Positions 11,064-41,243 of a stretch of 64,000 bases of DNA are shown in pieces. The DNA is from Candidatus Uhrbacteria bacterium (GTDB lineage Bacteria > Patescibacteriota > Patescibacteriia > UBA9934 > GWF2-40-263): positions 79,863-143,862 of the forward strand of contig JAERTI010000036.1 of NCBI GenBank assembly GCA_016844925.1, written 5' to 3'. Each line of letters starts with the position of its first letter. Positions within the stretch are counted from its first letter, which is position 1. The notes under the pieces are model-generated. The model saw nothing but the letters and a program-made list of their open reading frames with translations, made no database searches and was not told the DNA's origin. A program made the translations under genes and the position numbers.

Positions 11064-11213
11064 AAGGCCTTCTTTACGTGCGGCGCAAGCCAAACATGAG
11101 AAGGTCTTTCTGTTTCCGAGTAGTGAACACTGGGCCTTGGTCTGGTGTTTTCGACGCGGAACTTCCTAGTACCTGACAACTCAGATGCGGCAAGCCGCAC
11201 GGAGGAGATCGCA

Positions 11214-13382
11214 ATGGCCGTGGACATCAGCATGTTCAAGTCCCTGGTTCGAGAGACATTCGAATCCAAGGGCCGCGAGGGCGCCGAGAGGATGCTTCGC
11301 GAAGGAATCGCCGCCGGCGAGGACACCAGTGGGCTGATCAAGAAGCTCTCGGTGTGGATGCTCGACGAGAATGGCGAGTTCATGACCATGGTGCGAGCCA
11401 TCCCCGGCTCGTCCGAGGTTCCGCACCTGGCCACCATCGCGGTGGCGCACATCCTCGAGGATTCGAATCTGATCGATTCGCTCATCCCCGACAACAAGAC
11501 GCCCGCGGTGCGCGGCCTCAAGTTCGCGCTCAAGACCGGCCTGGCCGGCATGATCGCCGGCATTGGCGAGGGAACCTCTGGGTTCCTGCGCGGCAAGGTC
11601 GCCGGCGTGGTCGACGACCATGTCTCGGCTGAGCGCGTCGCTGTGGCGGACCGCAAGGGACGCCTCGACGAGCTGCTCATCATCTCCGACGAGCGCTTCG
11701 GCCTGCGCCGACCGCTCATCATGGCGCGCGACGCCAGTGGTGATGTGCTCGCCACCGACCGTGGTTACCCGCGGGTGGAAGACGGTGAGGGCATGGCCTT
11801 CATCTCCGCCTGGGAGCGTGCCAACCCCGAGGTCACCACGACCAAGAAGTCCGGTGGCAAGGGTGGGCAGACCACCAGCGAGACCAAGAAGCTGACGCCG
11901 CCCTGGCGTCGCGTCTGGCTCAGCGAATACCTCGCGTTGCTCAAGTCCTCTCCGGGGACGACCGTGGATCAGGCGCTCATCGAGCGTCTGGAGAAGCTGG
12001 TCACCCCCTCCAAGTCTTCGGACTGGGAGGAGGGGTACTCCATGGAGACCCTGAGGGTGCAGCGTGCCACCGCCGCGTCCGCTCCGGACATGCCGTCCAT
12101 CATGCGGGCGGAGATCGAGGAGATGTGGCGGTCCGTGCGCAAGCGCAAGCCGCCCATGAAGCTCCTCAACTTCCATGTCGGTGAGACCTTCCACGAGAAG
12201 ATCACCGCCGAGGGCAAGCTCTCGGTGGACGACATCCAGTCGATGATCGACACCATGGACATGCACCTGCGTGGAGATCAGGGGCTGTTCACTCAGGGCC
12301 GCAAGGCACTGGGTGTGGCCTCGGACTACCTGCGGACACTCGGGACGTCCGAAGACGAGCGCAAGATGATCCGGGCAGGACTGCTCGGCATCCTCTCGCC
12401 CGGACTCCTCTGGGCCATGGGAGCGGTGCTGACGGTGATGCTCCTGGTCACCGCCATCGCGATGAGCGGATCCCCGTTCATGTCGACCAGCTGGGCCATC
12501 GGCATGATCTGTTCGATGGTGGGTGGAGTTATCGGCTTCAACATCACCTGGCCCGTCCCCTTCGTGGAGATGGTGCTCACCCCCTTGTTCGGGGGCAAGA
12601 CCGAAGATGACTGGCTCAAGGACATCGGTCGTCAGGTGGCGGCGTTCGCGCTGGCCCTCGGCTGCGGCATCCTGCCGCTGCTCATCTACTTCGAGGCTCC
12701 GGCCTTCGTGGCAGCCCTGTTCGTCTCTGGTCTGGTGCTGGCGCCCATCGGGTACCTGTTCACCTACGCACGCCTGGGCGAGCACGAGCAGGCCAAGCAG
12801 CTGGTGCTGCGCAACCTGAAGAAGGCGACCTGGGTCCTCATGGGAGCCACGTTGGTGGTGACCGTCGCCGTGATCCTGATCAACGGCCTGCTGTCTCACT
12901 GGGTCAGCGGTCCCGAGCTCATCCAGCTCGCGGTGTTGCTCCTGACGGGAGTTGTCTCGGGCTTTGTCCTGGGGCTCCTCAAGTCCTGGATCTTCCAGCT
13001 GATCGTGCTGGCCCTCGTCATCGGCTTCGCCGCCTGGCGCTTCACCAAGGCCGAGCGCGTCTGGGACGGTGGTGGCTACAAGATCCACGAGATCCCCGTG
13101 TGGCGGCCGGTCCTGATCGGTCTGGCCATCGTCTCGCTGATCGGCATCGGCTACCAGCCGGTGAAGGCAGAGTGGAAGCAGACGATCGCGAGTCGCTCCA
13201 TGGAGAGCTTCCTCGCCTTCGTGCAGAGCTGGGACGATCCTGATCCGGCTCCGGCCACAACTCCCGCGTCCACCGCGGGAGGGCAGAGTACCTCCACACC
13301 CAGTGGTGTGGGGAAGCCGCCGACACAGGCGGAGTGCAACGCCATGCCGCCGATGTTCCGCAAGGACTTCGGCTGCAAGTAG
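11214..13382 (+). CDS. Uncharacterised large protein (about 720 aa) with an N-terminal soluble domain of about 390 aa, a C-terminal domain of 8-10 TM helices, and a Pro/Thr-rich tail ending in a Cys pair. GC-rich coding sequence.
   Basis: The ATG at 11214 is preceded by GGAGGAG. Sampled 60-nt windows have roughly 62-67% GC with strongly GC-ending codons. Multiple hydrophobic helices occur between about aa 395 and 700. The equally long antisense ORF (11181-13388) is Arg/Gly/His-rich and judged spurious. I recognise no family. Confidence 0.6.
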   Translation: MAVDISMFKSLVRETFESKGREGAERMLREGIAAGEDTSGLIKKLSVWMLDENGEFMTMVRAIPGSSEVPHLATIAVAHILEDSNLIDSLIPDNKTPAVRGLKFALKTGLAGMIAGIGEGTSGFLRGKVAGVVDDHVSAERVAVADRKGRLDELLIISDERFGLRRPLIMARDASGDVLATDRGYPRVEDGEGMAFISAWERANPEVTTTKKSGGKGGQTTSETKKLTPPWRRVWLSEYLALLKSSPGTTVDQALIERLEKLVTPSKSSDWEEGYSMETLRVQRATAASAPDMPSIMRAEIEEMWRSVRKRKPPMKLLNFHVGETFHEKITAEGKLSVDDIQSMIDTMDMHLRGDQGLFTQGRKALGVASDYLRTLGTSEDERKMIRAGLLGILSPGLLWAMGAVLTVMLLVTAIAMSGSPFMSTSWAIGMICSMVGGVIGFNITWPVPFVEMVLTPLFGGKTEDDWLKDIGRQVAAFALALGCGILPLLIYFEAPAFVAALFVSGLVLAPIGYLFTYARLGEHEQAKQLVLRNLKKATWVLMGATLVVTVAVILINGLLSHWVSGPELIQLAVLLLTGVVSGFVLGLLKSWIFQLIVLALVIGFAAWRFTKAERVWDGGGYKIHEIPVWRPVLIGLAIVSLIGIGYQPVKAEWKQTIASRSMESFLAFVQSWDDPDPAPATTPASTAGGQSTSTPSGVGKPPTQAECNAMPPMFRKDFGCK

Positions 13383-13473
13383 GTACACCTCTCGGTCGAG
13401 TCAACCTCGGCCAACGCAGGTCTGTTTGACCCCTAATTCATGGGGAAAAACGGACCTTTTTTGTTTAAAATCA

Positions 13474-13502
13474 TTGACAAAACCCCTATTTTCTGCTATT
13501 GT
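13474..13502 (+). promoter_or_regulatory. Sigma70-like promoter (ATTGACAAAA family): TTGACA, 17 nt spacer, TATTGT
   Basis: Sequence match, inside an AT-rich 290-nt spacer within the high-GC block. Confidence 0.45.
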
Positions 13503-13669
13503 GCCCCGTTCACGCAACATCTATTTGAGGGGTCAGATAAGGTATTGATGTGTCCAGAGAACGGTTGTTTTCTGGAATCCCCTCGACATCAATGCCTTTT
13601 CTGTTCCTTCAAGAAGAATCTCTCGATGAGCGAGATGGTTCGATCACAACCTGAGAAAGGAGGAGCCAG

Positions 13670-14263
13670 ATGCGTTGCTTCTGGATTCCGATCATCCTGG
13701 CGCTCGTGGTGTCAGGGTGTGCGACCGTCACCAGAACCGTCGATACCACCCCGGTGGATCTCGACGACGATGGTGAGGCCGAGACGACGCGCGAGAGCGT
13801 GACGGTGCAGTACCGAGGCAGCCTGCCGCCCCGACCCGTGGACATCATGGATGCGACGGACGAGACGGACAGCGAGGCCCTGGAGCTGGCCGGACAGGCG
13901 ATCGATCGCGGGATGGCGACCAGCGTCACCGTGACCGATGGCAGCGTGAGCGTGCAGGCAGGACAGGGCTACTACGGCACCTACTCCAGCGCGCCGGTGA
14001 TCTCCCCCTCGGGAGAGGTCTACGCCGCGCCCGATGTGGTGAGCACCCCCTACGGCTACCAGGCCACGGGAGGAGGCTCGCTGCCCCAGCTGCAGACCAC
14101 CACCGTGGTCCACGTGCCTTCCACCGGTGCGACCTCTCGCCCCGGCGGTGAGGTCACCTGCCCCGGTGAAGGTGAGCCCGCGCCCAAGCCCGGTACGCCC
14201 GAGCACGACGCCTGCATGGAGCAGGCGCTGCGCGCGATGGGCAAGCGCGTCTACGGACAGTAG
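13670..14263 (+). CDS. Uncharacterised lipoprotein (lipobox LVVSGC); GC-rich coding sequence
   Basis: RBS AAGGAGGAG. Signal peptide plus lipobox cysteine. Asp/Thr/Gly-rich mature part. GC-rich third codon positions. Confidence 0.6.
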   Translation: MRCFWIPIILALVVSGCATVTRTVDTTPVDLDDDGEAETTRESVTVQYRGSLPPRPVDIMDATDETDSEALELAGQAIDRGMATSVTVTDGSVSVQAGQGYYGTYSSAPVISPSGEVYAAPDVVSTPYGYQATGGGSLPQLQTTTVVHVPSTGATSRPGGEVTCPGEGEPAPKPGTPEHDACMEQALRAMGKRVYGQ

Positions 14264-14342
14264 GTCAGCGGGGGAATGAGCTCACGTTGACCACACGAAA
14301 TTTCTGTGTGGCCCAGCAGAGCTCGGCCCCCTGGAGGAAGAC

Positions 14343-15296
14343 ATGAAGAAGCAGACCCTGACCGCCCTGGTCCTGATCATGCTGGCGACCCTGCTGGCCG
14401 CGCCCCAGGCGCTGGCCGACAACGAGCTGGCGATCCTGCGCTACTGCACGGAGAAGTACCCCGAGAAGGGAGAGCCCTTCAACCAATGCATCATCAGCAA
14501 GCGTCTGGTGGTAGCTGAGTACGAGCGCGACCAGCTCGCGCAGCAGCTGGCTCAGGCTCAGGAGGAGCTCGCGACCCTCACGGCACAGCTCCAGAGCGGG
14601 CGTGAGATGGACGAGGAAGTGATCGCGGAGCTCAGCAGGCTCTCGGAGCTCGTCGGTGAGCTGCAGAGCCAGGTGGCGAGCTACGAGGAGGAGCGTGAGA
14701 GCGCCCCCGAGCAGCCCGTCCAGGCGGCCCCGCAGCCCCAGCAGACCGCTCCGGTTCACGCCGGCGGTGTGGTCACCGTGACCACGGGCGTGTCGTACCG
14801 ACAGGGACGTCGCCCCGCGCTGGTCTCGGTCTACCCGATCGACGCCGATCCGGAGGTGGTGAACATTTCGGCGCTGACCCACAAGAACACCTACTACAAG
14901 TGTGGAGGTGCTCCGGGTCGGCTGGTGATGGTGACCAACCACGGTCTGCCCATGGCGGTCACGGCCCCGGAAGGAATGCCCAGCGGATTCGTCGAGGTCT
15001 ACGTGGACCTCAACGGTGACGGGGTCTCCGACGGCAGCCGCAAGGTCATCGACCCGAGCGTCCACGGTGACATCAACATCACCTGGCACGAGGGCGACGA
15101 CATCCGCTTCACCTACCTGAAGAACAGTGGTGAGGTCCTGCTGGTTCCCGGCCTGCCCCCGCAGACTCTCTGGGAGATCCCCAGCTCGGGTGTGAAGGGT
15201 TGTGAGCTCGATGACCCGCGACGTGACCGCGAGCTGGTCCGGGCAGCCGACGAACAGAGCCTGAGGCTCTACGACGGCGTCTGGCCCGTCCGCTGA
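14343..15296 (+). CDS. Uncharacterised secreted protein with signal peptide, coiled-coil segment, Pro/Gln linker and C-terminal beta-rich domain; GC-rich coding sequence
   Basis: RBS GGAGGAAG. Signal peptide MKKQTLTALVLIMLATLLAAPQALA. Heptad-like EELATLTAQLQ... region. The antisense ORF 14265-15356 is Arg-rich and judged spurious. Confidence 0.6.
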   Translation: MKKQTLTALVLIMLATLLAAPQALADNELAILRYCTEKYPEKGEPFNQCIISKRLVVAEYERDQLAQQLAQAQEELATLTAQLQSGREMDEEVIAELSRLSELVGELQSQVASYEEERESAPEQPVQAAPQPQQTAPVHAGGVVTVTTGVSYRQGRRPALVSVYPIDADPEVVNISALTHKNTYYKCGGAPGRLVMVTNHGLPMAVTAPEGMPSGFVEVYVDLNGDGVSDGSRKVIDPSVHGDINITWHEGDDIRFTYLKNSGEVLLVPGLPPQTLWEIPSSGVKGCELDDPRRDRELVRAADEQSLRLYDGVWPVR

Positions 15297-15437
15297 GAGA
15301 AAACCGTGCCTTGCGCACATTGACCTGCCTGAGGGTAGGTCCGTCCTCCGGGACACACGACGAAGCGCTCTTGGGCGGCTCGGACGATACGAAATCGTCC
15401 TGAGCCCCTAAGAGCGCTGTTGTATTTCACAAACCAA

Positions 15438-15465
15438 AAACTCCGGCCAGGAGACCGGAGCTTTC
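15438..15465 (-). terminator. Rho-independent terminator downstream of the first pilin-like gene
   Basis: On the minus strand: CTCCGGTCTCCTGGCCGGAG hairpin followed by TTTTTGGTTTG. Confidence 0.7.
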
Positions 15466-15476
15466 CGAATGATTGT

Positions 15477-15860
15477 TTAAGCGGTTGCTGTGACCAAGGC
15501 GTCGATCACGAAGTCGGCGATGGCATAAGCGGCGATGATGATCACCAGACCAATGACAGCCTGTGAAAGAAGCTTCTTGGCTTTCTTGACCTTGTCCTCT
15601 TCTCCCTGGGAGGTGAGGTAAAGGAATCCTGCGTAGACAACCAGCACCACGAAGATGATACCGAGCACGGAGAGCAGGACGGCAATCAAGTTACCAATGA
15701 GTTCCGGGAGCTCGTTTGCTGTTGCCTCTGAACCGATACCCGTTCCAACGTCCTCGAGGCTGCTCTGCGCTTCAGAAAGCTGAGCGAAAGCGGCCGCAGG
15801 GAGAAGGAGGGCTGGCAGGGTTGAGAGCCAGGCGGCGAATTTGATGTAAGCGTTTTTCAT
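15477..15860 (-). CDS. VirB2/TrbC-like pilin-family small secreted membrane protein (paralog 1 of 5)
   Basis: Signal peptide, polar segment, then two hydrophobic helices separated by the charged loop TSQGEEDKVKKAKK. Start taken at the ATG at 15860; the track ORF starts at an upstream TTG. Confidence 0.45.
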   Translation of the reverse strand: MKNAYIKFAAWLSTLPALLLPAAAFAQLSEAQSSLEDVGTGIGSEATANELPELIGNLIAVLLSVLGIIFVVLVVYAGFLYLTSQGEEDKVKKAKKLLSQAVIGLVIIIAAYAIADFVIDALVTATA

Positions 15861-15895
15861 AAAGATAGTGAGACTAAGTTTCAATTGAGTTTAGA

Positions 15896-16297
15896 TTAGC
15901 CAAGGGCGGTCGTAAGAGCTTGGACGAGGTACGTGGTGACCGCATAGGCTGTGACCACGATTAGGATACCGATGACGGACGTAGTGAGCATGCTCTTCGC
16001 CTTCTTCACCTTACCTTCTTCGCCAGCTGCCGTCATGTAGAGCATTCCCGCGTAGACCATGATGACCAGGAAGATGATGCCGGTCAGGGCAAGCATGGCT
16101 GCGATCAGATTTCCGATAATGGTCGAGATGGACGAGGTGGAAAATAATCCTCCCCCAGTAGTTTCGATGCCACTTCGGATGGTTTCAGCAGCGTTATCAT
16201 CAGCTAGGGCTTCTGGCGCGATGAAGATCGCGAGTCCCAGCACTGCCACTACAGCCAAGCCCATAAGGCTCAGGTTGAGCGTTCGTTTCAATGTCAT
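15896..16297 (-). CDS. VirB2/TrbC-like pilin-family protein (paralog 2)
   Basis: Same architecture; conserved AGEEGKVKKAKS loop between two TM helices. Confidence 0.45.
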   Translation of the reverse strand: MTLKRTLNLSLMGLAVVAVLGLAIFIAPEALADDNAAETIRSGIETTGGGLFSTSSISTIIGNLIAAMLALTGIIFLVIMVYAGMLYMTAAGEEGKVKKAKSMLTTSVIGILIVVTAYAVTTYLVQALTTALG

Positions 16298-16395
16298 AGA
16301 GGTTTGTTCAACCGTCTGTTGTTCACACGAGCTCGCGAATACTCACGCGCTCATGCAAACCCCCATCGTTGGCTGGATGGGGATTGATCTAGATC

Positions 16396-16839
16396 TTACG
16401 ATGTTGCGGAGACAATTGAATCAATAACGAAGCTGGCAATGGCGTATGCCGAGAGGATAATCACCAGTCCGATAATACCGGAGAAGATGAGCTGCTTCGC
16501 GTTCTTCACTTTGTCCTCAGCACCAGCGGCTGTCATCCACTTGAATCCTCCAAGCAAGATGATTACCACAGCGATCACACCAAGGAATCCTAGAGCGATA
16601 CGGATAATAGCTGCGATGGTGTCAACCAGATCCGCTGATCCAAGACCAGTGGCTAGTTGAAAGTCTGAGTCTGATCCCGTGCTACCACCAAAGAGTTCAT
16701 CTGCGGTCAGTTGAGTGTCAGTGGATGCTGCTGTTGCGCCAACATCGCTGATACCTACAAGTGCAATGGCCCCAATTGAGAGGGCGAGGATAGCACCAAG
16801 GAAGAATCCGATGCGTTTTTTAGATAATGTGTTTGTCAT
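16396..16839 (-). CDS. VirB2/TrbC-like pilin-family protein (paralog 3)
   Basis: Same architecture (GGFKWMTAAGAEDKVKNAKQ). The ATG at 16839 is preceded by AAGGGGGTGA; the track ORF starts at an upstream GTG. Confidence 0.45.
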   Translation of the reverse strand: MTNTLSKKRIGFFLGAILALSIGAIALVGISDVGATAASTDTQLTADELFGGSTGSDSDFQLATGLGSADLVDTIAAIIRIALGFLGVIAVVIILLGGFKWMTAAGAEDKVKNAKQLIFSGIIGLVIILSAYAIASFVIDSIVSATS

Positions 16840-16971
16840 AGACGTCACCCCCTTTCCTAATGAAAAAGAATTAAGGCGTTTATTGAGTTAAAAATGTATT
16901 CGAAGTTATTCTACCGTTTTTAAGCCTCTCCAGGTAACTAAGATATCCACACGGCCTATTTTCAACTGCTC

Positions 16972-17331
16972 CTAGACGACGGTGCCCTCTGTAAGAATGG
17001 AGAGAACGGCACTGACCAGCACATACGCGAGCAGCATGACAGTGAGGCCAAGAACAGCCCATTTAATAGTCTCTTTCCCCTTCTTGATGCGATCTTGTTC
17101 ACCCGCAGAGAACAGCCACTGGAATCCACCCCAGACAAACATGAGCAGGGCAACGGATCCTGTGATACCGAAGATGCCCTGAATGAGTCTTCGGACAATC
17201 TCGTTGACTCCTACATGTCCCAATGGGTCGGTCAGTGTTGTGGCTGCTGCTGAAGCGAGCGATGGGGCACTCAAGAGGGCTAGACTAACGAGCCCATACC
17301 AGGAGCGTCGAATTGTTTGTGTGGTCATCAT
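16972..17331 (-). CDS. VirB2/TrbC-like pilin-family protein (paralog 4)
   Basis: Same architecture (GGFQWLFSAGEQDRIKKGKE). The start ATG overlaps the upstream stop in an ATGA arrangement. Confidence 0.45.
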   Translation of the reverse strand: MMTTQTIRRSWYGLVSLALLSAPSLASAAATTLTDPLGHVGVNEIVRRLIQGIFGITGSVALLMFVWGGFQWLFSAGEQDRIKKGKETIKWAVLGLTVMLLAYVLVSAVLSILTEGTVV

Positions 17332-18062
17332 AGAGATGTTCTGAAGTGAGTATAGCAGCATTGAATTCGTGGGGATCCTTCACAAGTTTCCGTACAGGGG
17401 CCTGAATAGTAGAAATAGGATTCTGATGAATAGGAACTTGGAACGCTTTCTGTATCGATACAGGTGTAGTAGTCGTAGGTACCAAGGACCTCATCGTATG
17501 TTCCTGATCCATCTGGATAGGTTTGTTCACACTCACTCAGGCAGAGGCCGTCTTCTGTACAGGTGCTGTGATCTCCGCAGGCCCATCCAACGGTTGCATC
17601 AGTACAAAATGACGTGAACTCTTCGGTCTCATCGCTGGTTCCGTAGATGGTGCCTGATGTAAGTACTTGTTTGAGTGTATAGATACCAGTCCAGGCAAAC
17701 AGGACGATGAGGAGGCCGACGGTGCTGATTTTGATGTACTTCTTTCCTTTTTTCACACGCTCTGGATCACCGGCAGAAACCAACATCCAGAATCCCCCGA
17801 TGACATACATAAGGAGAACGATTCCCCCGATGATGCTCAGAATGTAGTTCCCCACGTTGCTGAACACCTGCATGATGTCGGTCAATGTGCAGTCACCCGT
17901 ATTTCCGCAGGCGTTGGAGATGCCTTGCATGAATGGCCCTACCTCACCCTCGGTACATTTTCCTGTTGGGCCAGGCTTACAGATATTGGATGAGTAGGCC
18001 TGGGTGCTAGCCGGGGCGAGTGTGAGCGAGACAAGAATGAGTGCTAAGAGAATCCTCCTCAT
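17328..18062 (-). CDS. Cys-rich VirB2/TrbC-like protein (paralog 5) with extra N- and C-terminal cysteine-rich extracellular segments
   Basis: Signal peptide; N-terminal Cys-rich stretch (CKPGPTGKCTEGE...CGNTGDC); pilin-like core (GGFWMLVSAGDPERVKKGKK); C-terminal roughly 110 aa with about 14 Cys. Confidence 0.45.
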   Translation of the reverse strand: MRRILLALILVSLTLAPASTQAYSSNICKPGPTGKCTEGEVGPFMQGISNACGNTGDCTLTDIMQVFSNVGNYILSIIGGIVLLMYVIGGFWMLVSAGDPERVKKGKKYIKISTVGLLIVLFAWTGIYTLKQVLTSGTIYGTSDETEEFTSFCTDATVGWACGDHSTCTEDGLCLSECEQTYPDGSGTYDEVLGTYDYYTCIDTESVPSSYSSESYFYYSGPCTETCEGSPRIQCCYTHFRTSL

Positions 18063-19450
18063 AAGGTTTGGTTTACCTTGTTTTGAGCCGTTGTGAGAGA
18101 TGCTTCCTCTTCTGCTCCAGAAAGGAAGGCGTCAATAAGTTCTATGAAGGCCTCTTCAGCAACCTGTGCATCGTCACCTTGGTACCAACTGTCTGCCGTG
18201 AGGGTTTGGCCGACAAAGACGGAGAGTGTTTCGTCCTCAATCTGATCATTGATAAGTCCACGGAGTGCCGTCGGTTTTTGCGCAGCGTTCAAGTAGCTCA
18301 TGACACGTTCTGCGTCAGTGGAAAAGAGGATGAAGTCCCAGGCCCAGTCACTGTTGTCCGTGCTCTTGGCAACGGTCTCGACCCAGTAGTTAGCGTAGTT
18401 CACCGTCTTGCCTCCGTCGATTTGTGGGACTGGGGCGATGGAGAAGTCGAGTTTTTCATTGGCCGCGCGGATGAATGGGGCGTGGTAGGCGTAGCCAAAG
18501 AAGAATCCCAGGTTTCCGGCCGTGAAGGCGTCAAAGGAGTCTAGCTGATCCTCATTCCAGGTGTAGACCTCTTTGAGTGGATTGGCGAAGTCCGTGTAAA
18601 AACGCATGGCTTGACCGGCGAGGAATGTCTTATCGACCTCTCTAGCAAAGAGGGCGCGTCCACGACTGTCTGTCATTTCTGTGCCGTTCTGCATCATCAG
18701 GAGGGAGGCGATATCGAAGGCACGTTCAACGTTTTCTCCGGTTCCGATGGCAGCAGCTGCTTGAATGATTTCATCGTCGGATCCGATCCTCACCATGTCA
18801 GCAACCTGGTCCTGGAACTCACTCCAAGTACTTGGCGGCTGTGGGAATCCAGCAGCATCGAGGAGGTCTTCGTTGTAATACAGGGCGAGCGTGTCGACGG
18901 CGAGCGGAAGGCCAAAGATGCGGCTTTCTGTAGGTGAGTCTGCGTTCGGTTGATAGTCGCGTAGGACATCTTGAGTCACCACATCGATGTAATCGCTCTT
19001 AAGAGCTCGTTCTGAGAGCGTTGGTTCTTCTTGGATGGTGTAGACCACCTCCTTTTTTACGGTTCCGCGTGTTTCAGAATATGGAATAGTGACGGAGTCT
19101 GGCATCGGCAGAATGAGACTCTCATATTCACCGATCCAAGTGTTGTGAATGGAGAAGATGTCTGGTCCGGTTCCTTCGGCGAAGGCACGGATGAGCTCAT
19201 CTTCATATTCATCCAGACGCAATTCTCGATAGTTGAACGAGACGTTTGGGTGAATCGCGCGGTAGGCATTCATGAGGTCTCGGAACGTGTCATCGCTGTC
19301 GAACACACGCCAAATGGTGAGAGTGACAGGTGTGGTGGCCAGGCGTTCAGCCGTTGCGTTGCCACCGCAGCCTGCTCCTGTAAGCACAAGCGCGACCAAC
19401 AACAACGGGGCCACGAGGCGGAAGAAAGATGTTGATCGTGTCTGCGTCAT
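18059..19450 (-). CDS. ABC transporter extracellular solute-binding lipoprotein (family 1, sugar-type)
   Basis: 463 aa; signal peptide with lipobox LTGAGC; size and composition typical of SBP_bac_1. Confidence 0.7.
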   Translation of the reverse strand: MTQTRSTSFFRLVAPLLLVALVLTGAGCGGNATAERLATTPVTLTIWRVFDSDDTFRDLMNAYRAIHPNVSFNYRELRLDEYEDELIRAFAEGTGPDIFSIHNTWIGEYESLILPMPDSVTIPYSETRGTVKKEVVYTIQEEPTLSERALKSDYIDVVTQDVLRDYQPNADSPTESRIFGLPLAVDTLALYYNEDLLDAAGFPQPPSTWSEFQDQVADMVRIGSDDEIIQAAAAIGTGENVERAFDIASLLMMQNGTEMTDSRGRALFAREVDKTFLAGQAMRFYTDFANPLKEVYTWNEDQLDSFDAFTAGNLGFFFGYAYHAPFIRAANEKLDFSIAPVPQIDGGKTVNYANYWVETVAKSTDNSDWAWDFILFSTDAERVMSYLNAAQKPTALRGLINDQIEDETLSVFVGQTLTADSWYQGDDAQVAEEAFIELIDAFLSGAEEEASLTTAQNKVNQTL

Positions 19451-20325
19451 AGAGATTTGATGGTCTTTTTAAGGTAGCGTTTGAGATTTGAGCCCGTGTC
19501 AGGGTGTTTGAGTCCAAGCTCCACCTGCGCCTTGAGGAAGCCGAGCTTGTTTCCACAGTCGTAGCGTGTGCCTTCAAACTTACATCCGTACAAAGCCTTG
19601 TTTTGCTCCAGGAGCGTGTTGAATGCATCAGCGAGTCGGATTTCTCCGTCACCACCAGCAGCTTGAGAGGGAAGGATGTCGAAGACCTCCGGGGTGAGAA
19701 TGTAGCGGCCGATGACAATAAGGTTGGATGGGGCCTTGCTGACAGGGGGTTTTTCTACGAAACGATCAATCTGGTAAGCACCTGCACCTACGCTCTTTCC
19801 CCCAATCACGCCGTACTTACTTACGTCTTTCTTTGGGACTTTCTGTAGAGCGATAACTGGATCGCCGTACTTTTCATACACGTCCATGAGTTGACGTAGA
19901 GCTGGTTTCTCATCGCTGTCGATGATGTCGTCTCCAAAGAGGACGGCAACAGGCTCATGTGCATCAACGAACGGGAGAGCCGTTAGGACGGCATGACCAT
20001 CACCCAGAGGTTTTGCCTGACGTACAAAGGCGAACTTCGCGAGCTTTCCGATTTTTGAGACGGCCTTGAGGGCTGCTTTCTTTCTCTTTTGCTCAAGTCG
20101 GTACTCAAGTTCGAAGTTGCGATCAAAGTGATCTTCGATGGCGCGCTTGCCGTTTGAGGTGACAAAGATGATCTCCTCGATACCGCTGGCGACCGCCTCT
20201 TCAACAATGTATTGAATGACGGGCTTATCAACGACAGCGAGCATCTCTTTTGGTTGGGCCTTGGAGGCCGGTAGGAAACGAGTTCCCATTCCCGCAACGG
20301 GAATAATAGCTTTGCGAATTTTCAT
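19447..20325 (-). CDS. galU: UTP--glucose-1-phosphate uridylyltransferase
   Basis: Starts at the internal ATG (MKIRKAIIPVAGMGTRFLPASK), the nucleotidyltransferase GxGTRxLPxTK motif. Confidence 0.85.
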   Translation of the reverse strand: MKIRKAIIPVAGMGTRFLPASKAQPKEMLAVVDKPVIQYIVEEAVASGIEEIIFVTSNGKRAIEDHFDRNFELEYRLEQKRKKAALKAVSKIGKLAKFAFVRQAKPLGDGHAVLTALPFVDAHEPVAVLFGDDIIDSDEKPALRQLMDVYEKYGDPVIALQKVPKKDVSKYGVIGGKSVGAGAYQIDRFVEKPPVSKAPSNLIVIGRYILTPEVFDILPSQAAGGDGEIRLADAFNTLLEQNKALYGCKFEGTRYDCGNKLGFLKAQVELGLKHPDTGSNLKRYLKKTIKSL

Positions 20326-20524
20326 AGATTTGCCCTTATTGTAGCGCACTGAAGAGTAAAGAAAAAACACTCCTGTGGAGTGTTTCGGTCGATTAGTCGC
20401 GGCTGAGATGGTAGAGCGTAACAAGAAGAAAGACGATCAGAATGACGACAGCGATGATTATGCGTGGATCAGTCAGCATATGAGATAGCGTAACACAAAA
20501 CACAGCAGGTCTTGCTGTGTTTTG

Positions 20525-20614
<90 letters not shown>

Positions 20615-20670: not shown

Positions 20671-21306
20671 TCAGTCTTGTTGAGGTATTTGGTCGTGATA
20701 GGTGCTGTTTTTAAGGATATCCTGTGCGAGTAAGAGGAGTTCTCCGTCCGTGGCATGGTTACCATCTGCGGAGATGATGACGAGGTATTCGTCCTCGTGA
20801 AAAAGAAGTTGTTTTGAAATTTCGCACTTATTCGGGATACCGTCTTCGTAGTCGATGCAGCGTGGTCGACTGTCGAGTTCTACGAAGGTGGCGGTGTGAC
20901 CGTCGATTAAGACCTCTTCCTGGTAGAAAAGTCGGTAAATCGCCTGTTGCTCCTCGATGGACCTACTGGGAAGGTAGTCGATCTCTACAAACCGCCAGCC
21001 GTTTCTTACATAGACAAGGGAGGTGGTTCCGATGGGGAATGTGTCGCTTGTTTGTGTGTAGACGCCGATTTCGTAAAGCACACTCTCAAGACTGTCGTTG
21101 GGTGGAGTGATTTCAAGTGTATCGACTGATTCGTGAGTCACCAATCCTGGGGCTTGGGTGAGAAGTGTGCGGTCGCTCACAGAGAGCCAGGTCACCAATC
21201 GAATGATCAGTGCCACGATTAAAATCGCCAGAACGAATCCACCTATAACACGGAGGCTTGGTTCTCGGTCGGGTCTATTTCTTCGAACGATGCGTCTGAG
21301 GAGCAT
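20671..21306 (-). CDS. Hypothetical membrane-anchored protein
   Basis: 211 aa ORF, N-terminal TM helix, no recognisable motif. Confidence 0.4.
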   Translation of the reverse strand: MLLRRIVRRNRPDREPSLRVIGGFVLAILIVALIIRLVTWLSVSDRTLLTQAPGLVTHESVDTLEITPPNDSLESVLYEIGVYTQTSDTFPIGTTSLVYVRNGWRFVEIDYLPSRSIEEQQAIYRLFYQEEVLIDGHTATFVELDSRPRCIDYEDGIPNKCEISKQLLFHEDEYLVIISADGNHATDGELLLLAQDILKNSTYHDQIPQQD

Positions 21307-22504
21307 AGAGCAGTGTGGCGATCAGGAGCCATGTAAGGATGGCGAGGTCGTTTTTCAAGTAGGGTACGTCGACAAGGCCGTGGATGGCGATCTCGATGAG
21401 AGCGAAGAACGCCGCGTACCCAGCGAGTGACGCTGGCTTGATCGATCGTCCTCGTACGAGTAATTGCCAACCAAGGAGCGCGACGGCAATGAGGCCTAAG
21501 AGCCCCAATTCCACCCAAATGTTTAAGACGATGTTGTGTGGGTATTGAAAAATTTCGTAGTGGGTGGCTCGGTGGTAGGGCTCAAGGGCCGTCGGGTAGC
21601 CAGAGAGGCCGGTGCCGAGCAGCCAGTGATCCTGGAGGAGATCGACCGTCTCACTCCATTGCGAGAGGCGAACCTGGCCGGAGTAGTCTTGGAGGGTGAG
21701 CTTGCCTACAACATCGGCTCTCCAAGGGGAGAGCAGTACCAGCGCTCCTACAACAAGTGTTCCAGCGACTGTGAGACGTCGCGTTTTTTTATTCACGAGT
21801 CCTGCGAGCAGGAGTGTTGCAATGATCGCGACAATGGCCGCCTCGGATTGGGCGAGAGTGGTGGCGATGAGTGAGAGGATCGTTACCGTGGGCCAGAACC
21901 AGGTGGAGACATCTTTGGTGAGACGTCGCGTGTGCATCGCGCCAATGATGACGATTGGTCCCAAGAAGAGTCCCAGGGCGTTCGGGTAATCAAAAACGGA
22001 GGTCACGCGGCGTTCAATGTCCCACGGAATGGGGAGGCCGGCACCAGTAATCCACTGAACGATGGCGACGAGAGAAAGAATGAGGGCTGTGAGACCGAGG
22101 GATTTGAAAAGGTCTTCGGCGGTGATGCTTGAGCGGATGAGTTCATACCTCACGATGAAAAAGAGGATGATCGGTTCAATGAAATACGCTTTCCAGATAC
22201 CTGCAGCCCCCATGAGATCCGGGGCGACGAAGAGGGAGACTGTGGAGGAGAGAAGGAGCAATCCAAGCGGGATCAGAATCGTTCGTGTTGGCAGCAGGCT
22301 TGAGAGTGTTGGGCGATGTTTGATGAGCCAAACCACAACGAATGTGAGAAGGAGCAGCTCGAGGAGGGTTGTGGGGACTCCAAAGAGTTCCGTGCGCAGG
22401 AGGTAACTTGGGAGTAGGGCAACGAGAAGTAGGAGTCCTCCGCGGGGGTTCAGCCAGGTTGTCAGACCGAATGCGGCCGTGAGGATTATCAGGACGGGGG
22501 TCAT
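21275..22504 (-). CDS. O-antigen ligase/polymerase family (Wzy_C domain) membrane protein
   Basis: 409 aa, about 10-12 TM helices, central periplasmic loop typical of WaaL/Wzy. Confidence 0.6.
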   Translation of the reverse strand: MTPVLIILTAAFGLTTWLNPRGGLLLLVALLPSYLLRTELFGVPTTLLELLLLTFVVVWLIKHRPTLSSLLPTRTILIPLGLLLLSSTVSLFVAPDLMGAAGIWKAYFIEPIILFFIVRYELIRSSITAEDLFKSLGLTALILSLVAIVQWITGAGLPIPWDIERRVTSVFDYPNALGLFLGPIVIIGAMHTRRLTKDVSTWFWPTVTILSLIATTLAQSEAAIVAIIATLLLAGLVNKKTRRLTVAGTLVVGALVLLSPWRADVVGKLTLQDYSGQVRLSQWSETVDLLQDHWLLGTGLSGYPTALEPYHRATHYEIFQYPHNIVLNIWVELGLLGLIAVALLGWQLLVRGRSIKPASLAGYAAFFALIEIAIHGLVDVPYLKNDLAILTWLLIATLLYAPQTHRSKK

Positions 22505-23928
22505 ACCACTGGACGGGTCAGGGCCTTAAGCTCTTTGATGGTAATAGCGCGTAGGGCGAGTAGTGCGGCTCCATAGACTGTGGCGCCGATCAGGATATCG
22601 AGAATGACGTGTACATCAATTTGTCGCAATACGAGATACATGGCCGTTGCTGCAAGGAGGGCCTTGAGGGTGGCAAGGAGATTTGGCAGAGCACCACTAA
22701 CGCGCCAGACAACAATAAAGGTAATGGCGGCGATGAGCGCTTCGCTGGCGAGCGTGACCCAGATGGCGCCCCACATACCGTGCTCTGGAATCAGCCAGAG
22801 GTAGCCGACGATGGAGACAATGGCTACGAAGACATAACCGAGAGTCATGATGCGCTGTTTGTTGAGTGCAACGATGAGGTGGCCGTAGAGTGCACCCAAG
22901 AACACACCAATAAGGGCAATGATGAGCAGTGCCAACGCAGGGCCAGCATCAGCAAACCCGTCTCCAGCGATTAAGACCGTGAGTTCTGTCGCGACGAGTT
23001 GTGCGCCAACAACAAGGGGAATGACGGCCATGGCGAATAGATCAAACGTGCGCGCTACGTATCTGCGGAAGTCTTTGGCTTTGCCAGCACTCCAGGCGGC
23101 TACGAGCGATGGGAGCACGAGCCCCATGAACATGACAGGAAGTACGGTGAGAACGTCGATAATGCGATAGGCCATGCCGTAGAGACCCACTTCTGTTTCG
23201 GGGCGGAAGTAGGCAAGGAAGAGAATGTCGCCCTTGAGGTAGAGCAGGTTGAAGACAATTGAGACAGCGATGGGCCAAGAGCGGGAGAGGATGTCGCGCC
23301 AGACGGACATCTCGAACAGTGGGCGGACGCGGACGAGTGGCTTGGCAAAGTGGATCATCGTCCAGAGCCAGATGGCGTTGGCGATCACGGAGGCAAAGAC
23401 CATGGCTCCTACGGTTGGAGCGGTCATGGCAAAGATGGCGATGAGTCCCAGGAGCACGGCGCGGTTAATAAGCTCTGCCAGGGCCGCACGCCACATGCGT
23501 TCATGCTTTTGAAAGATACCTACGAGCATGCTGGCACCTCCCATAAAGAAGTACGCTGTCGCACCAATGAGTACGGCTTGCTTTACGACAGGGGTGAAGG
23601 GAAATGCCAAGATCGAAATCGGCGCAAGGGAAAACAAAAGGGCTCCTGAGACAAGTCGTAGCCCAAAAAAGTTCCCAGCAACACGCTCTTCATCGATCCC
23701 TTTTTCCGAGATCATGACGATAAGGGTGAGCGTGAGTCCAAAGTCCACCACCACACCAAACATTTGAAGATAGGTAACAGCCGTGGTGTATTCACCAAAG
23801 GCAGCCGTTCCTAAGGTGCGTGTAATAAAGGCAATCGTAATCAGGCCGATGAGTACCGAGAGGCCTTTACCAATGAGCTGGACAGTGAAATTTGAGGCTA
23901 AAGATCGCGATGAAATCATATCGGTCAT
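22501..23928 (-). CDS. Polysaccharide flippase (Wzx/MOP superfamily)
   Basis: 475 aa, 12-14 TM helices, N-terminal GKGLSVLIGLITIAFITRTLG typical of Wzx. Confidence 0.65.
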   Translation of the reverse strand: MTDMISSRSLASNFTVQLIGKGLSVLIGLITIAFITRTLGTAAFGEYTTAVTYLQMFGVVVDFGLTLTLIVMISEKGIDEERVAGNFFGLRLVSGALLFSLAPISILAFPFTPVVKQAVLIGATAYFFMGGASMLVGIFQKHERMWRAALAELINRAVLLGLIAIFAMTAPTVGAMVFASVIANAIWLWTMIHFAKPLVRVRPLFEMSVWRDILSRSWPIAVSIVFNLLYLKGDILFLAYFRPETEVGLYGMAYRIIDVLTVLPVMFMGLVLPSLVAAWSAGKAKDFRRYVARTFDLFAMAVIPLVVGAQLVATELTVLIAGDGFADAGPALALLIIALIGVFLGALYGHLIVALNKQRIMTLGYVFVAIVSIVGYLWLIPEHGMWGAIWVTLASEALIAAITFIVVWRVSGALPNLLATLKALLAATAMYLVLRQIDVHVILDILIGATVYGAALLALRAITIKELKALTRPVV

Positions 23929-32069: not shown

Positions 32070-34943
32070 CTAAGCCGCCGCACGCTCCCGTCGTCTTGGG
32101 AGTTTGCGCATGAGTGCTAGCGCAGCGAGCAGGGTGGCAACAACAAGAACAATGGTCATTCCCATGCGGGACTGCTGCTGATTAAGAAGGGCCTTGCCAT
32201 CTTGTGAAGTGCTAGCAAAGGCGACCGCCGCAGATTCTTCGATATGGATATCGGTCTCTGCTCGAGGGCGCAGACGTAGCTCTCCGTTGTAGCTCGTGAG
32301 AATGCCGGTAACCGTGAGTAGGTCTCCTCGTTCGAATTGGTTTGCATCGATAAGCGGATCGGATTTGAGGTAGATGGTCACGCGGTCCGGACCATCTTCA
32401 AGAACAAGCTTTGTTGAACTACGAGAGAGAATCTGTCCGCTTGTCTTGATGAGGAGACCTACAAGGGCCTCGTCGAACGCTTTGGCATCGTGCTGTGCTG
32501 GCATGGCTTGTGTGAGGTCACCTGTTGGGACGATATCTGTCGCATTGGTCACCTTCACACGCCGCTCTCCATAGGCGGTGCTCATGACACCTTCGATGCG
32601 TACTCGTGTATTCGTGTCGAGTTCTGGAAAGGTGGCGGCGTAGAAATATACTTGAACGCCGGCGCTCTCATCCTGGAGGTACATCACCTGGCGCCCGAAT
32701 GTTCCAGGGCTTGCGGTGACATAGCCTTCGACGCGTACACGTGTGTCATCAGGTTGAACTTTGGCCTGTTCAATGGAGAAGAAACTAACGTAGCTGGCTG
32801 CGGAAATGGATTGCGTGTTTGAGCTGGTGTTGGTCGTGGAAGAAGTTGTGCTGGAGCTCGTTGTCGTGCCTTGGGTCGATGCTACTTCTTTTGTTGTAAC
32901 AGCCTCATTTGTTTCGACGGCACTCTTCTTTGTTGAAGTATCTGTCGTCGACCAGCTCCAGTACGCGCCATCTCTATCGTATGTTCCCCCTCGAGGGGCA
33001 CTGCCATAGGTCACCATGTCGATCACATCGCCCTCTGGTGTAATCAGCTCCAGTGTGTCGCCGCTGTTGTTTAGAGAAAGATCGCTCTGCGGGCGATCCA
33101 CGCGGAGGGTGCTTCCTCCAGCAATCTTGAGAGAGCTGGAGAAGGTGTATCGGTCTGTAGAACCATCTTCGATGCTCCAGCCCTTGAGATCGATGCTCTC
33201 AAGGCCAGTGTTTGCAATTTCAATATATTCCTCCTGTGCGTCTGCTCCTGATGTGTTTGGGTAAAGCGAAGTGAATTCAAGGGTGACGGCGCCGGAGTAG
33301 GTAGTTTCATCTATTTCTGAGCCCTCTTGTTCTGGCGTAGATTCCTCATCTGAGGAATCTGGCGCCGTGTCTGTGTACTCTGTTGAGCTCGTGTAAGTCT
33401 CCTCTTCCTCGACAACCTCTTCTTGAGAAGTTTCCGCTTCATTTGCATCGATGGGCTCCTCGGGTTCGTCCTCCACGACTTCCGATTCTGTCTCAGCGCT
33501 CGTCTCACTTGCATCTGAGATGACATTTGGTCCGCCGGGCGTAGTGGTGTTGGTGAGAGTGAAGGAACCGCCGCTGTCACGCGCGAGACTGTCACCATCT
33601 TTTGGTGCGGGAAGATCTTCGCCCCCGTAGGTGATTGAGTCGATGACGGTTCTGGCTGCGTCGAGAAGTAAAATGGTGTCGGTATCGTTGTTGAGCTTTC
33701 CCCTCGGCCCCTCAACGACGATGTAGCTTCCGCTGGCAACAACGACAGGCTCAAGCTCGGTGGCTCGACCTGTGGCATCTTCAACCGTCCAGCCGGTGGT
33801 ATCGATGCTTTCGGTGGCGCGGTTCACAATCTCGATCCACTCTTCTCCCTCGTTTGGATCAACAACGAACTCGTTGATTTGCATAACACCAGGAGCGTAA
33901 GCGATGGTCGTGGTGGGTACATCTTCCTCGGGTTCGGAAGATGTCTCAGATGGTGTGTTCTCCTTTGAAGATTCATCTTGCAGATGCTCGTTTGATCCCT
34001 CGAGGGATTCAGTTTCATTTGCTTCTGCCTCCTCGGAAACCTCTTGAGGGTCGTTATTTTTCTCTGATGTTGTTTCTGGGTCAGTAACAGATTCCTCTTC
34101 GATAATTTCTTGTGTCTCCTCTATTTCGGCAGGCACAGAAGATGTTTCGCCAGAATTTTCAGTGTCCTCAGGAAGTGATTCTTCTGTATCTTGCGGAGTC
34201 TCTTCCGTTGCCTCTTGAGTTTCGTTGCCTGAAATTTCTTCTTCGAGCGCTTCTTCTGTTTCCCCCTCAAGGACCTCTTCCTCGTTTATTTCTTCAGATT
34301 CCTTTTCTGTCTCTGGAATAAACCATTCCTCGACGGCACCTGGTGTGCCCATGTCCTCAATATTCTGTTTAAAACCTGAGGCTGTCTGGGCATCGCTCCA
34401 AGCGGCTTCATCTGATCCGCTCAGCGTTTCATCGACTCGAGCCATGGATCGGTATCGTCCGTCATCAGTATCCGCAGCGCTGCCAGATCTTCCGGCGAAA
34501 GCTGATCCATCTCCTCCTGCCACATCGATGAGGGAACCGTCATGGTCATAGAGAGTTGCACGGAATCCGTCATTTGGCAGTGACAGGGTGGCGGTGATGA
34601 AGTTGGGTTCGACGCTGAGGGCCGAGTTGTCGTGGGAAGAATCATAGTTGGCGATAAGAAAGGTTGAGTAAGGTTCGATGACGGTGTCATCAGGCACGAC
34701 AAGGTCTTTCCCCGAACTGCCGGCTCCCGTGATAGTCCAGTTGGATAGATCGATGGGTGTGTCGGTCAGGTTTGTAAGCTCGATCCATTCATCAGAACTT
34801 GATTGACTCGAACCAGCCCAGGCAATCTCAGAAAAGATGACGGTGGGTGTTTGTGCGAAGGTCTTAATCGGTACAGCGACAAGCGATGCAAGAACGATCA
34901 TGGCAATCCACACTTTGTTGAATAGCAACATACGTTGGGTCAT
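32070..34943 (-). CDS. Large acidic surface-anchored protein (957 aa) with three lamin-tail-domain (LTD) repeats, an OB-fold-like domain and a C-terminal TM anchor
   Basis: Signal peptide. The LTD signature xEIAWAGS...DEWIELTN occurs three times. Long Glu/Ser/Thr-rich linkers. C-terminal hydrophobic helix plus RRRER. Confidence 0.6.
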   Translation of the reverse strand: MTQRMLLFNKVWIAMIVLASLVAVPIKTFAQTPTVIFSEIAWAGSSQSSSDEWIELTNLTDTPIDLSNWTITGAGSSGKDLVVPDDTVIEPYSTFLIANYDSSHDNSALSVEPNFITATLSLPNDGFRATLYDHDGSLIDVAGGDGSAFAGRSGSAADTDDGRYRSMARVDETLSGSDEAAWSDAQTASGFKQNIEDMGTPGAVEEWFIPETEKESEEINEEEVLEGETEEALEEEISGNETQEATEETPQDTEESLPEDTENSGETSSVPAEIEETQEIIEEESVTDPETTSEKNNDPQEVSEEAEANETESLEGSNEHLQDESSKENTPSETSSEPEEDVPTTTIAYAPGVMQINEFVVDPNEGEEWIEIVNRATESIDTTGWTVEDATGRATELEPVVVASGSYIVVEGPRGKLNNDTDTILLLDAARTVIDSITYGGEDLPAPKDGDSLARDSGGSFTLTNTTTPGGPNVISDASETSAETESEVVEDEPEEPIDANEAETSQEEVVEEEETYTSSTEYTDTAPDSSDEESTPEQEGSEIDETTYSGAVTLEFTSLYPNTSGADAQEEYIEIANTGLESIDLKGWSIEDGSTDRYTFSSSLKIAGGSTLRVDRPQSDLSLNNSGDTLELITPEGDVIDMVTYGSAPRGGTYDRDGAYWSWSTTDTSTKKSAVETNEAVTTKEVASTQGTTTSSSTTSSTTNTSSNTQSISAASYVSFFSIEQAKVQPDDTRVRVEGYVTASPGTFGRQVMYLQDESAGVQVYFYAATFPELDTNTRVRIEGVMSTAYGERRVKVTNATDIVPTGDLTQAMPAQHDAKAFDEALVGLLIKTSGQILSRSSTKLVLEDGPDRVTIYLKSDPLIDANQFERGDLLTVTGILTSYNGELRLRPRAETDIHIEESAAVAFASTSQDGKALLNQQQSRMGMTIVLVVATLLAALALMRKLPRRRERAAA

Positions 34944-37929: not shown

Positions 37930-41055
<3,126 letters not shown>

Positions 41056-41133
41056 ACCACTTCTGCGTTTGATTGAGTCTGATCAAACCAGTTTCTCTTC
41101 TACAATAAAACAACGAAAGAAAGAATCTTTTGT

Positions 41134-41243
41134 CTTGGTGCTCCTTCCAGAGAGGTCACACCCGTTCCCATCCCGAACACGGTAGTTAAGCTCTCTAGGG
41201 CCGATGGTAGTGCGTTCGCGCGAGAGTAGGTAGGCGCCAGGAC
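41134..41243 (+). rRNA. rrf: 5S ribosomal RNA
   Basis: CTTGGTGCTCCTTCCAGAGAGGTCACACCCGTTCCCATCCCGAACACGGTAGTTAAGCTCTCTAGGGCCGATGGTAGTGCG...GGCGCCAGGAC. Confidence 0.9.

Follow-up and report, generated by a model that had tools for sequence, protein, structure and literature searches.

What do five small secreted proteins build when their genes stand in tandem and no secretion ATPase is encoded nearby? The question is raised by a stretch of 64,000 nucleotides from a Candidatus Uhrbacteria bacterium (GenBank assembly GCA_016844925.1, contig JAERTI010000036.1, positions 79,863 to 143,862 of the forward strand), hereafter the window, in which five back-to-back open reading frames (ORFs) occupy positions 15477-18062 of the minus strand. 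A first-pass annotation made from the sequence had described them as tandem paralogs of VirB2/TrbC, the pilin of type IV secretion systems (T4SSs). The ORF call on the window matches the proposed genes exactly, and an independent gene caller applied to a second assembly of the locus (Logan SRR13374099, locus L001) gave products of 244, 119, 147, 122 and 127 aa, all five bearing a precomputed PF18895 mark. We name the genes pil5, pil4, pil3, pil2 and pil1 in order of transcription. The locus is the Uhrbacteria version of the VirB2-like arrays of Patescibacteria, with five non-redundant pilins in a seven-gene co-directional unit. The probability that the five proteins serve as subunits of a T4SS-assembled surface filament or conduit can be put at roughly 60%.

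The assignment to the T4SS pilins comes from curated hidden Markov models (HMMs) and protein architecture, and not from likeness to a solved pilus. Hydropathy and direct reading of the sequences, by which signal peptides and helices were assigned, reproduced the common build that had been proposed: a Sec-type N-terminal signal peptide (cleaved, for example, between MRRILLALILVSLTLAPASTQA and YSS or between PAAAFA and QLS), a Ser/Thr/Gly-rich polar stretch, and a pair of hydrophobic helices connected by a basic loop. In the core alignment the loops read GEEDKVKKAK, GEEGKVKKAK, GAEDKVKNAK, GEQDRIKKGK and GDPERVKKGK, with the consensus G-x-E/D-x-K/R-V/I-K-K/N-A/G-K. All five proteins exceed the gathering threshold of the T4SS_pilin family PF18895 (26.6 bits), scoring 41.5, 38.6, 33.2, 49.0 and 39.8 bits over the whole protein for pil1 to pil5, so that the T4SS pilin assignment of the first-pass annotation stands. 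For the TrbC/VirB2 family PF04956, which it had suggested as a check, the result is divided: pil4 (25.2 bits) and pil1 (21.1 bits) fall under the threshold of 27.9 bits, and the pil4 orthologue of another Uhrbacteria genome (locus L039) clears it with 31.7 bits. Precomputed TrbC matches also exist for orthologues in related loci, and pil4 is the most TrbC/VirB2-like of the five paralogs. The best NCBIfam model for every one of them is NF045849, the Mbov_0395 pilin-like conjugal transfer protein of Mycoplasma integrative and conjugative elements (ICEs), whose cutoff of 40 bits none of the pilins reached (39.9, 35.4, 34.5, 26.6 and 31.5 bits). A custom pilin HMM built from the family matches only these five ORFs in the window.

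The array is not a product of chance, because it recurs in the loci of 41 species-representative genomes annotated as Candidatus Uhrbacteria, Patescibacteria or Parcubacteria. A published genome table (PMC12102498) assigns Uhrbacteria to GTDB class ABY1. Exactly five pilin genes are present in 30 non-duplicate related loci and six or seven in a few, and arrays of fewer than five genes are cut by contig ends. In the five-gene loci, positions 1, 2, 3 and 5 best match pil5, pil4, pil3 and pil1 of the window without exception (30/30), and position 4 best matches pil2 in 24 of the 30. Orthologues share 46-68% identity (medians), compared to 24-48% among the paralogs within the window. The most conserved paralog is pil1 (median 68% between species), pil3 orthologues have a median of 65%, and the hairpins of both are conserved at 80-90% per column. 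The least conserved position is pil2, and the extra genes of the six- and seven-gene arrays are pil2-like or pil1-like. Judged by these alignments, the five pilins are ancient, specialised and non-interchangeable paralogs held in fixed order in about 30 Uhrbacteria species, which fits distinct subunit roles in one assembly better than interchangeable or antigenic variants. The first-pass annotation had called expanded pilin-like families a hallmark of episymbiotic bacteria with reduced genomes; they are indeed typical of such bacteria (PMC12102498, PMC10633639, PMC12857230), but what this clade carries is a fixed five-paralog set. Eleven of the related records (L014, L027, L029, L031, L032, L034, L036-L038, L042 and L043, all TPA_asm metagenome-assembled genomes, MAGs) are titled 'uncultured Gammaproteobacteria bacterium'; on GTDB representative records that carry an Uhrbacteria-specific locus, these titles look mislabelled.

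The transcriptionally first pilin gene, pil5, encodes the paralog with Cys-rich N- and C-terminal extensions. Its product consists of a signal peptide (residues 1-22), a four-cysteine segment (∼23-60), two helices (60-95 and 100-136), a linker and a C-terminal domain (∼150-244). The presence of Cys-rich ectodomains at both ends had been predicted correctly, with a count of about 18 cysteines that we correct to 14, four of them N-terminal and ten C-terminal. All are found in predicted extracytoplasmic segments and none in the hairpin; because of this, the topology with both ends outside and the loop inside is independently supported. An alignment of 28 family members shows twelve invariant cysteines and a further two that hardly vary, and together with the N-terminal motif EVGPFMxGIS..CGN.GDC.L.DI they are the fixed part of a protein whose C-domain is otherwise variable and whose orthologues are 38-56% identical. 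An AlphaFold2 model of pil5 (predicted local distance difference test score, pLDDT, 76.5) shows a long helical hairpin (60-95, 100-136) and a beta-rich C-terminal domain, and the latter modelled by itself reached a pLDDT of 81.4. No fold in the PDB matched the C-domain (best E = 1.1, TM-score < 0.33). A profile of the C-domain retrieved only 31 of 1.84 billion representative proteins, nearly all of them 220-265 aa long with the domain C-terminal, that is, the same pilin fusion. The C-terminal Cys-rich domain is thus an orphan domain restricted to the pil5 pilin family, whose 78 homologues are all annotated as Uhrbacteria or Patescibacteria/Parcubacteria.

The array and the elements that belong with it are, in order of transcription:

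19447-20325, minus strand: galU, UTP-glucose-1-phosphate uridylyltransferase (TIGR01099 and PF00483), which heads the co-directional unit.
18059-19450, minus strand: gene for an orphan sugar-type extracellular solute-binding protein, SBP (SBP_bac_1, PF01547).
17328-18062, minus strand: pil5, 244-aa VirB2-like pilin (PF18895, 39.8 bits).
16972-17331, minus strand: pil4, 119-aa pilin (PF18895, 49.0 bits; PF04956, 25.2 bits).
16941-16952, minus strand: G-TGTGGATAT-C element, DnaA-box-like, 21 nt past the pil4 stop.
16908-16913, minus strand: -10-like hexamer TAGAAT of an internal promoter, ∼70 nt upstream of the pil3 ATG.
16396-16839, minus strand: pil3, 147-aa pilin with a strong Shine-Dalgarno sequence, AGGGGGTGA (PF18895, 33.2 bits).
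15896-16297, minus strand: pil2, 133-aa pilin, or 122 aa from an alternative start at 16264 (PF18895, 38.6 bits).
15477-15860, minus strand: pil1, 127-aa pilin (PF18895, 41.5 bits; NF045849, 39.9 bits).
15430-15465, minus strand: intrinsic terminator at the end of the array, called from fold energy and shuffles.

The stop of galU and the beginning of the SBP gene share 4 nt. The ATGA overlap already noted within the array is that of pil5 and pil4, and a second one joins the SBP stop to the pil5 start. The array also ends, as had been claimed, in a terminator of its own. A GC-rich stem (CUCCGGUC/GGCCGGAG) lengthened by A-U pairs stands ∼12 nt past the pil1 stop and is followed by a U run, UUUUUGGUUUG; it folds at -24.8 kcal/mol (z = -5.36), and 0 of 200 shuffles were equally stable. 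A simple consensus scan missed this terminator, which was found by folding. In the pil3-pil2 gap, at 16361-16382 of the minus strand, a 7-bp hairpin (CCCCATC...GATGGGG) followed by GUUUG is a candidate weak terminator or attenuator that might reduce the expression of pil2 and pil1 relative to pil3.

The two genes at the head of the unit are constant partners of the pilins. GalU scored 350.8 bits with TIGR01099 (cutoff 326.8), and the SBP matched PF01547 with E = 8e-23, has weak matches to GanS, MalE and UgpB, and carries a lipoprotein-like signal peptide ending in LTGAGC. Pfam scans of the window ORFs found no ABC permease or ATPase to go with it. Wherever a related locus extends upstream of the array, galU, the SBP gene and pil5 stand next to each other, and the 4-nt SBP-pil5 overlap is present in most related loci. 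SBP orthologues are 60-77% identical and thereby more conserved than pil5. The SBP homologue search gave only close orthologues among the matches listed and is uninformative on coupling between SBP and pilins beyond Uhrbacteria. Co-directional and upstream of galU, at 21275-23928 of the minus strand, are genes for a Wzx-like flippase (Polysacc_synt) and a Wzy_C protein, and both are syntenic in relatives (L002, L003 and a JGI contig). A second Wzy_C protein of 734 aa is encoded at 56026-58230. The Wzy_C family takes in pilin O-oligosaccharyltransferases. The combination of Wzy_C, galU and Ser/Thr-rich exposed pilin segments raises the idea of O-glycosylated pilins. Between a tRNA-Ser gene (20525-20614) and the galU start (20325), the minus strand has a 10-bp hairpin and T run at 20364-20386, just 39 nt ahead of the galU ATG. 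Read-through, or else a very compact promoter, may account for the transcription of galU-SBP-pil5-pil4.

A second, internal promoter is indicated by a conserved architecture in the pil4-pil3 gap, which consists of G-TGTGGATAT-C, a spacer of 27-30 nt and A5-N-CGG-TA(A/G)AAT. In the window, where the element written out is GTGTGGATATC, the 9-mer is at 16943-16951 and the -10 hexamer TAGAAT at 16908-16913. Apart from one mismatch, the 9-mer is complementary to the DnaA-box consensus TTATCCACA, and in five loci the match is perfect. TGTGGATAW, which occurs about once per related locus of 10-21 kb, lies on the coding strand 3-76 nt past the stop of the pil4 orthologue in 25 distinct loci. The flanking bases are conserved as well (G in 21/25, C in 24/25). 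TA(A/G)AAT was located by pattern search and has constant spacing in 25/25 loci, and the A-tract before it, which was not a selection criterion, is conserved in 24/25. Several loci have a terminator-like hairpin between the pil4 orthologue stop and the 9-mer. There are probably two transcription units, galU-SBP-pil5-pil4 and pil3-pil2-pil1, and from its similarity to the consensus the 9-mer would be a binding site for DnaA. We found no paper on DnaA boxes in Patescibacteria. The window holds three copies of the 9-mer compared to 0.55 expected; a second TGTGGATAT, ∼250 nt upstream of the 23S rRNA gene and without the A-tract and -10 architecture, is probably there by chance. In seven related loci (L006, L011, L012, L013, L021, L003 and L008) the 5' leader of the pil3 orthologue, from the -10 to the start, contains conserved blocks, GAATACATTTTTAACTCAATAAATTTCCTAACTCTTT. 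A subset of leaders has a hairpin that differs in sequence between species yet is still paired, for example TTCCTGAG...CTCAGGAA and CTTCTTTG...CAAAGAAG. The window leader is without the long hairpin, and no Rfam family matched the window for it at gathering threshold. The leader of the pil3 orthologues could be regulatory.

If these are T4SS pilins, where is the machine? Among essentially all window ORFs of 150 aa or more, Pfam scans detected no VirB4, VirD4, VirB6, TrsD, VirB3, VirB8, PilB, PilC or PilT, in agreement with the first-pass statement that VirB4, VirB6 and VirD4 are absent. It is family membership alone that ties the proteins functionally to a T4SS, because no T4SS gene is nearby. 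A survey of 3,035 Patescibacteria genomes with PF04956 and PF18895 found VirB2-like pilins in 1,948 VirB4-positive assemblies, and near virB4 in just 1,135 of them (Quinonero-Coronel et al. 2025, PMC12102498); for this reason a missing nearby ATPase is not odd. The same survey describes 441 arrays of 2-11 pilin genes with a mean identity of 25% and a maximum of 54%, and suggests adaptation to different hosts as their role (PMC12102498). Its Table S1 lists six of the Uhrbacteria MAGs that carry the array, three with VirB4 'Yes' (GWC2_41_11, GWE2_46_68 and CG_4_9_14_3_um_filter_50_9) and three with 'No' (PMC12102498). For GWC2_41_11 (GCA_000996355.1, our L039), the available part of Table S3 has VirB4 and TrsD in adjacent genes (669-670) away from the array, two T4CP and two VirB3 matches, and no VirB2 row (PMC12102498). 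Our Pfam scan of its array (L039, 9983-12517) found four of the five genes to pass PF18895 and one to pass PF04956, and, as far as that part of the table goes, Uhrbacteria arrays may be under-counted in the survey. In Ca. Southlakia epibionticum, a VirB2-like array of six pilins is essential for epibiotic growth (Wang et al. 2023, PMC10633639), and a 2025 review treats a possible pilus of monoderm T4SSs as an open question (PMC12857230). Tandem VirB2-like arrays have already been published for Patescibacteria, and the Uhrbacteria locus adds a well-conserved member to them without amounting to a new type of system.

The array shares with the published Patescibacteria arrays its tandem PF18895/PF04956-type pilins, encoded on the chromosome of a monoderm bacterium of the Candidate Phyla Radiation (CPR) with no relaxase nearby, and the low identity of structurally similar paralogs (24-48% here). 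It differs in standing outside a T4SS cluster and joined to galU and an orphan SBP gene, in a number and order of genes fixed across the clade, in a lead pilin with two Cys-rich ectodomains, and in being split by an internal DnaA-box-like promoter. The Gram-negative pilins VirB2, TrbC and TraA (PF04956) have the same signal peptide, two-helix hairpin and short basic loop (KVKKAK here, KNVK in F) and predicted extracytoplasmic termini, and are matched in size by the four small paralogs. Unlike them, the Uhrbacteria pilins come from a monoderm and are encoded apart from VirB4 and VirB6, one paralog has globular extensions and three times the size, and the similarity is only near threshold, with no solved pilin matched by profile. 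Bartonella and Anaplasma phagocytophilum, also host-dependent, likewise have several divergent VirB2 genes in tandem. Theirs are read as antigenic or host-range variants, whereas positional orthology over an order-level clade argues for fixed roles in Uhrbacteria. The Mbov_0395 family of Mycoplasma ICEs is the best NCBIfam match and also a small two-helix protein of a T4SS in wall-less or monoderm cells, but all Uhrbacteria scores are under its cutoff of 40 and there is no ICE context.

A working model can be drawn from these comparisons. Sec would insert each pilin, and with the signal peptide cleaved it would be a two-helix membrane hairpin whose K-rich loop faces the cytoplasm and whose two ends are external. 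A T4SS of monoderm type, encoded at another place in the genome (VirB4, TrsD and a VirB6-like protein), would pull out the subunits, probably with lipid, as VirB2 leaves the membrane together with phospholipid (PMC12624023). They would then polymerise into a short filament or conduit across the wall, with the basic loop in the lumen and the termini on the outer surface; this is the arrangement in the F pilus, where the 'KNVK' loop between the helices faces the lumen and the two termini are exposed on the outside (PMC5018250). The most conserved paralogs, pil1 and pil3, are candidate bulk subunits, and pil5 might expose its pair of disulfide-bonded ectodomains at the tip or elsewhere on the outside as a contact or adhesion module. 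Production of pil5 and pil4 would be translationally coupled to the SBP, and pil3-pil1 would be driven by the internal promoter with its DnaA-box-like operator. A role in host attachment or DNA uptake, as proposed in the first-pass annotation, could follow; nothing here favours DNA uptake specifically.

Several observations weigh against a T4SS-assembled filament. No T4SS gene is found within the 64 kb, nor in ∼10 kb around the array in four related loci, and GalU, the SBP, the flippase and Wzy_C are partners that point to sugar and envelope biology and not to secretion. A domain of 100 aa on a pilin may not suit a tightly packed filament. Among PDB sequences, no solved conjugative pilin was matched by a profile of the pil4 orthologues or by one of the pil5 family. 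A Foldseek search of the PDB with the pil5 model placed the Aeropyrum pernix conjugation pilus 8dfu at rank 2 with the highest probability (0.77), but the match to the hairpin is not significant (E = 1.3, TM-score to target 0.59) and is only suggestive of likeness to a conjugative pilus. To our knowledge, a pilus has never been seen on the T4SS of any Patescibacterium. Three of the six array-carrying MAGs are scored as VirB4-negative, and these are incomplete genomes (PMC12102498). The strongest rival, which we hold to be unlikely, builds on the same facts: the two-helix proteins would stay in the membrane and act with the SBP, GalU, flippase and Wzy_C in a module for envelope, glycan or uptake functions that is unconnected with any T4SS, either as membrane partner or channel for the orphan SBP or as O-glycosylated surface anchors. 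The close operon linkage, throughout the clade, with galU and with an SBP that has no ABC partners would find a natural place in it, as would the co-directional genes for the Polysacc_synt (Wzx-like) and Wzy_C proteins that directly precede the unit both in the window and in relatives, the lack of T4SS genes in the neighbourhood, and the Ser/Thr/Gly-rich exposed segments of the pilins. Against it stand the PF18895 and TrbC matches, which are specific and above threshold (for TrbC, in the L039 pil4 orthologue), and the same family lies within a T4SS cluster and is essential in Saccharibacteria (PMC10633639, PMC12857230). Moreover, synteny of the whole region is so conserved that adjacency alone is weak evidence.

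It is also conceivable that the array serves variation, with interchangeable major pilins kept for antigenic or host-range change, a reading proposed for the VirB2 paralogs of Bartonella and Anaplasma. The published view of Patescibacteria arrays, low paralog identity with possible adaptation to host strains (PMC12102498), leans the same way. So do the low identity of the window paralogs (24-48%), the variable pil2-like position 4, duplicated in arrays of six or seven genes, and a pil5 C-domain surface that varies over an invariant cysteine scaffold. We nevertheless consider this improbable, with each position having its own orthologue in the same order in ∼30 species, orthologues closer to each other than paralogs, and pil1 and pil3 hairpins conserved at 80-90% per column; two expression regimes, translational coupling and a promoter of its own, also argue for fixed distinct roles. 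Subunits of a type IV pilus or competence pseudopilus would likewise be small, secreted and hydrophobic, and the organism group depends on type IV pili. We rule this out for all practical purposes, as the first-pass annotation did. The class III prepilin leader (G/F-T-L-x-E) is missing from all five N-termini, which carry a Sec signal peptide followed by two hydrophobic helices instead of a single N-terminal helix, and no pilin, PilB, PilC or PilD Pfam match was found among the array proteins and window ORFs. T4SS-dependent assembly remains the reading we prefer. A far-reaching extension of it, which we regard as a long shot, is a five-subunit heteromeric VirB2-type organelle in which pil5 would offer a disulfide-knotted host-contact domain, the SBP and GalU-dependent glycosylation would serve to take host material, and pil3-pil1 would be switched by DnaA through the box at about -48 and so be tied to replication. 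It would be a nutrient or attachment apparatus derived from a T4SS, under cell-cycle control and not a conjugation pilus.

The wider window is chromosomal, with genes for 23S and 5S rRNA, six tRNAs, cell-wall, Fe-S cluster and glycolytic functions. Where secretion or pilus machinery was looked for, Pfam scans of nearly every window ORF turned up only genes of housekeeping and envelope type. Convergent with the array, at 11145-15296 of the plus strand, are genes for a protein with multiple transmembrane segments (11214-13382, 722/745 aa), a lipoprotein-like protein (13670-14263, 197 aa) and a secreted coiled-coil protein (14343-15296, 317 aa). As candidates for hidden T4SS parts, for example a VirB6-like protein, they had no Pfam or NCBIfam match even at E = 5, and the 722-aa protein has at least five homologues among the matches listed. 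In these three genes, and in two others without a Pfam or NCBIfam match (46657-48105, plus strand; 55042-55923, minus strand), the G+C content at third codon positions (GC3) is 0.82-0.87 compared to ∼0.53 in other genes. The bias is synonymous, because amino-acid composition is normal, and for the three convergent genes it is shared by the orthologues in 23/23 other Uhrbacteria loci (median +0.24), on which ground a chimera or recent horizontal transfer was rejected. Candidate causes are biased gene conversion, if these are surface genes that recombine, and the control of expression. The 23S rRNA (37935-41242, plus strand) measures 3123 nt against a 2925-position model, with an insertion of ∼200 nt, and is followed by the 5S. 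Upstream there is a SPOUT methyltransferase gene on the opposite strand and no 16S gene, so the rRNA genes are unlinked. Works cited in the reference list of PMC11665869 report rRNA insertions for CPR bacteria. At 32070-34943 of the minus strand, a 957-aa secreted protein combines three lamin-tail domains, an OB-fold (tRNA_anti-codon) and DUF5689; the architecture is that of extracellular proteins of a nuclease-like or DNA-binding surface type, and may be relevant to nucleotide scavenging.

New here are the fixed order of five paralogs, the orphan Cys-rich pilin domain, the coupling to galU and SBP, and the internal DnaA-box-like promoter. T4SS-type pilins of monoderm CPR bacteria have proved essential in the single species examined so far, but a pilus has yet to be observed, and their role is an open question. 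The Uhrbacteria locus leaves this overall picture unchanged but gives a clean comparative handle on it, with a fixed five-paralog set that has orthologues in dozens of species, constant SBP and GalU partners, an exposed pil5 domain suited to tagging, antibodies and binding assays, and a promoter element, shared across loci, on which DnaA binding can be assayed. The strictness with which each position keeps its own orthologue speaks for at least some pilin arrays of CPR bacteria being machines of several components, not cassettes for variation, which refines the published view of these families.

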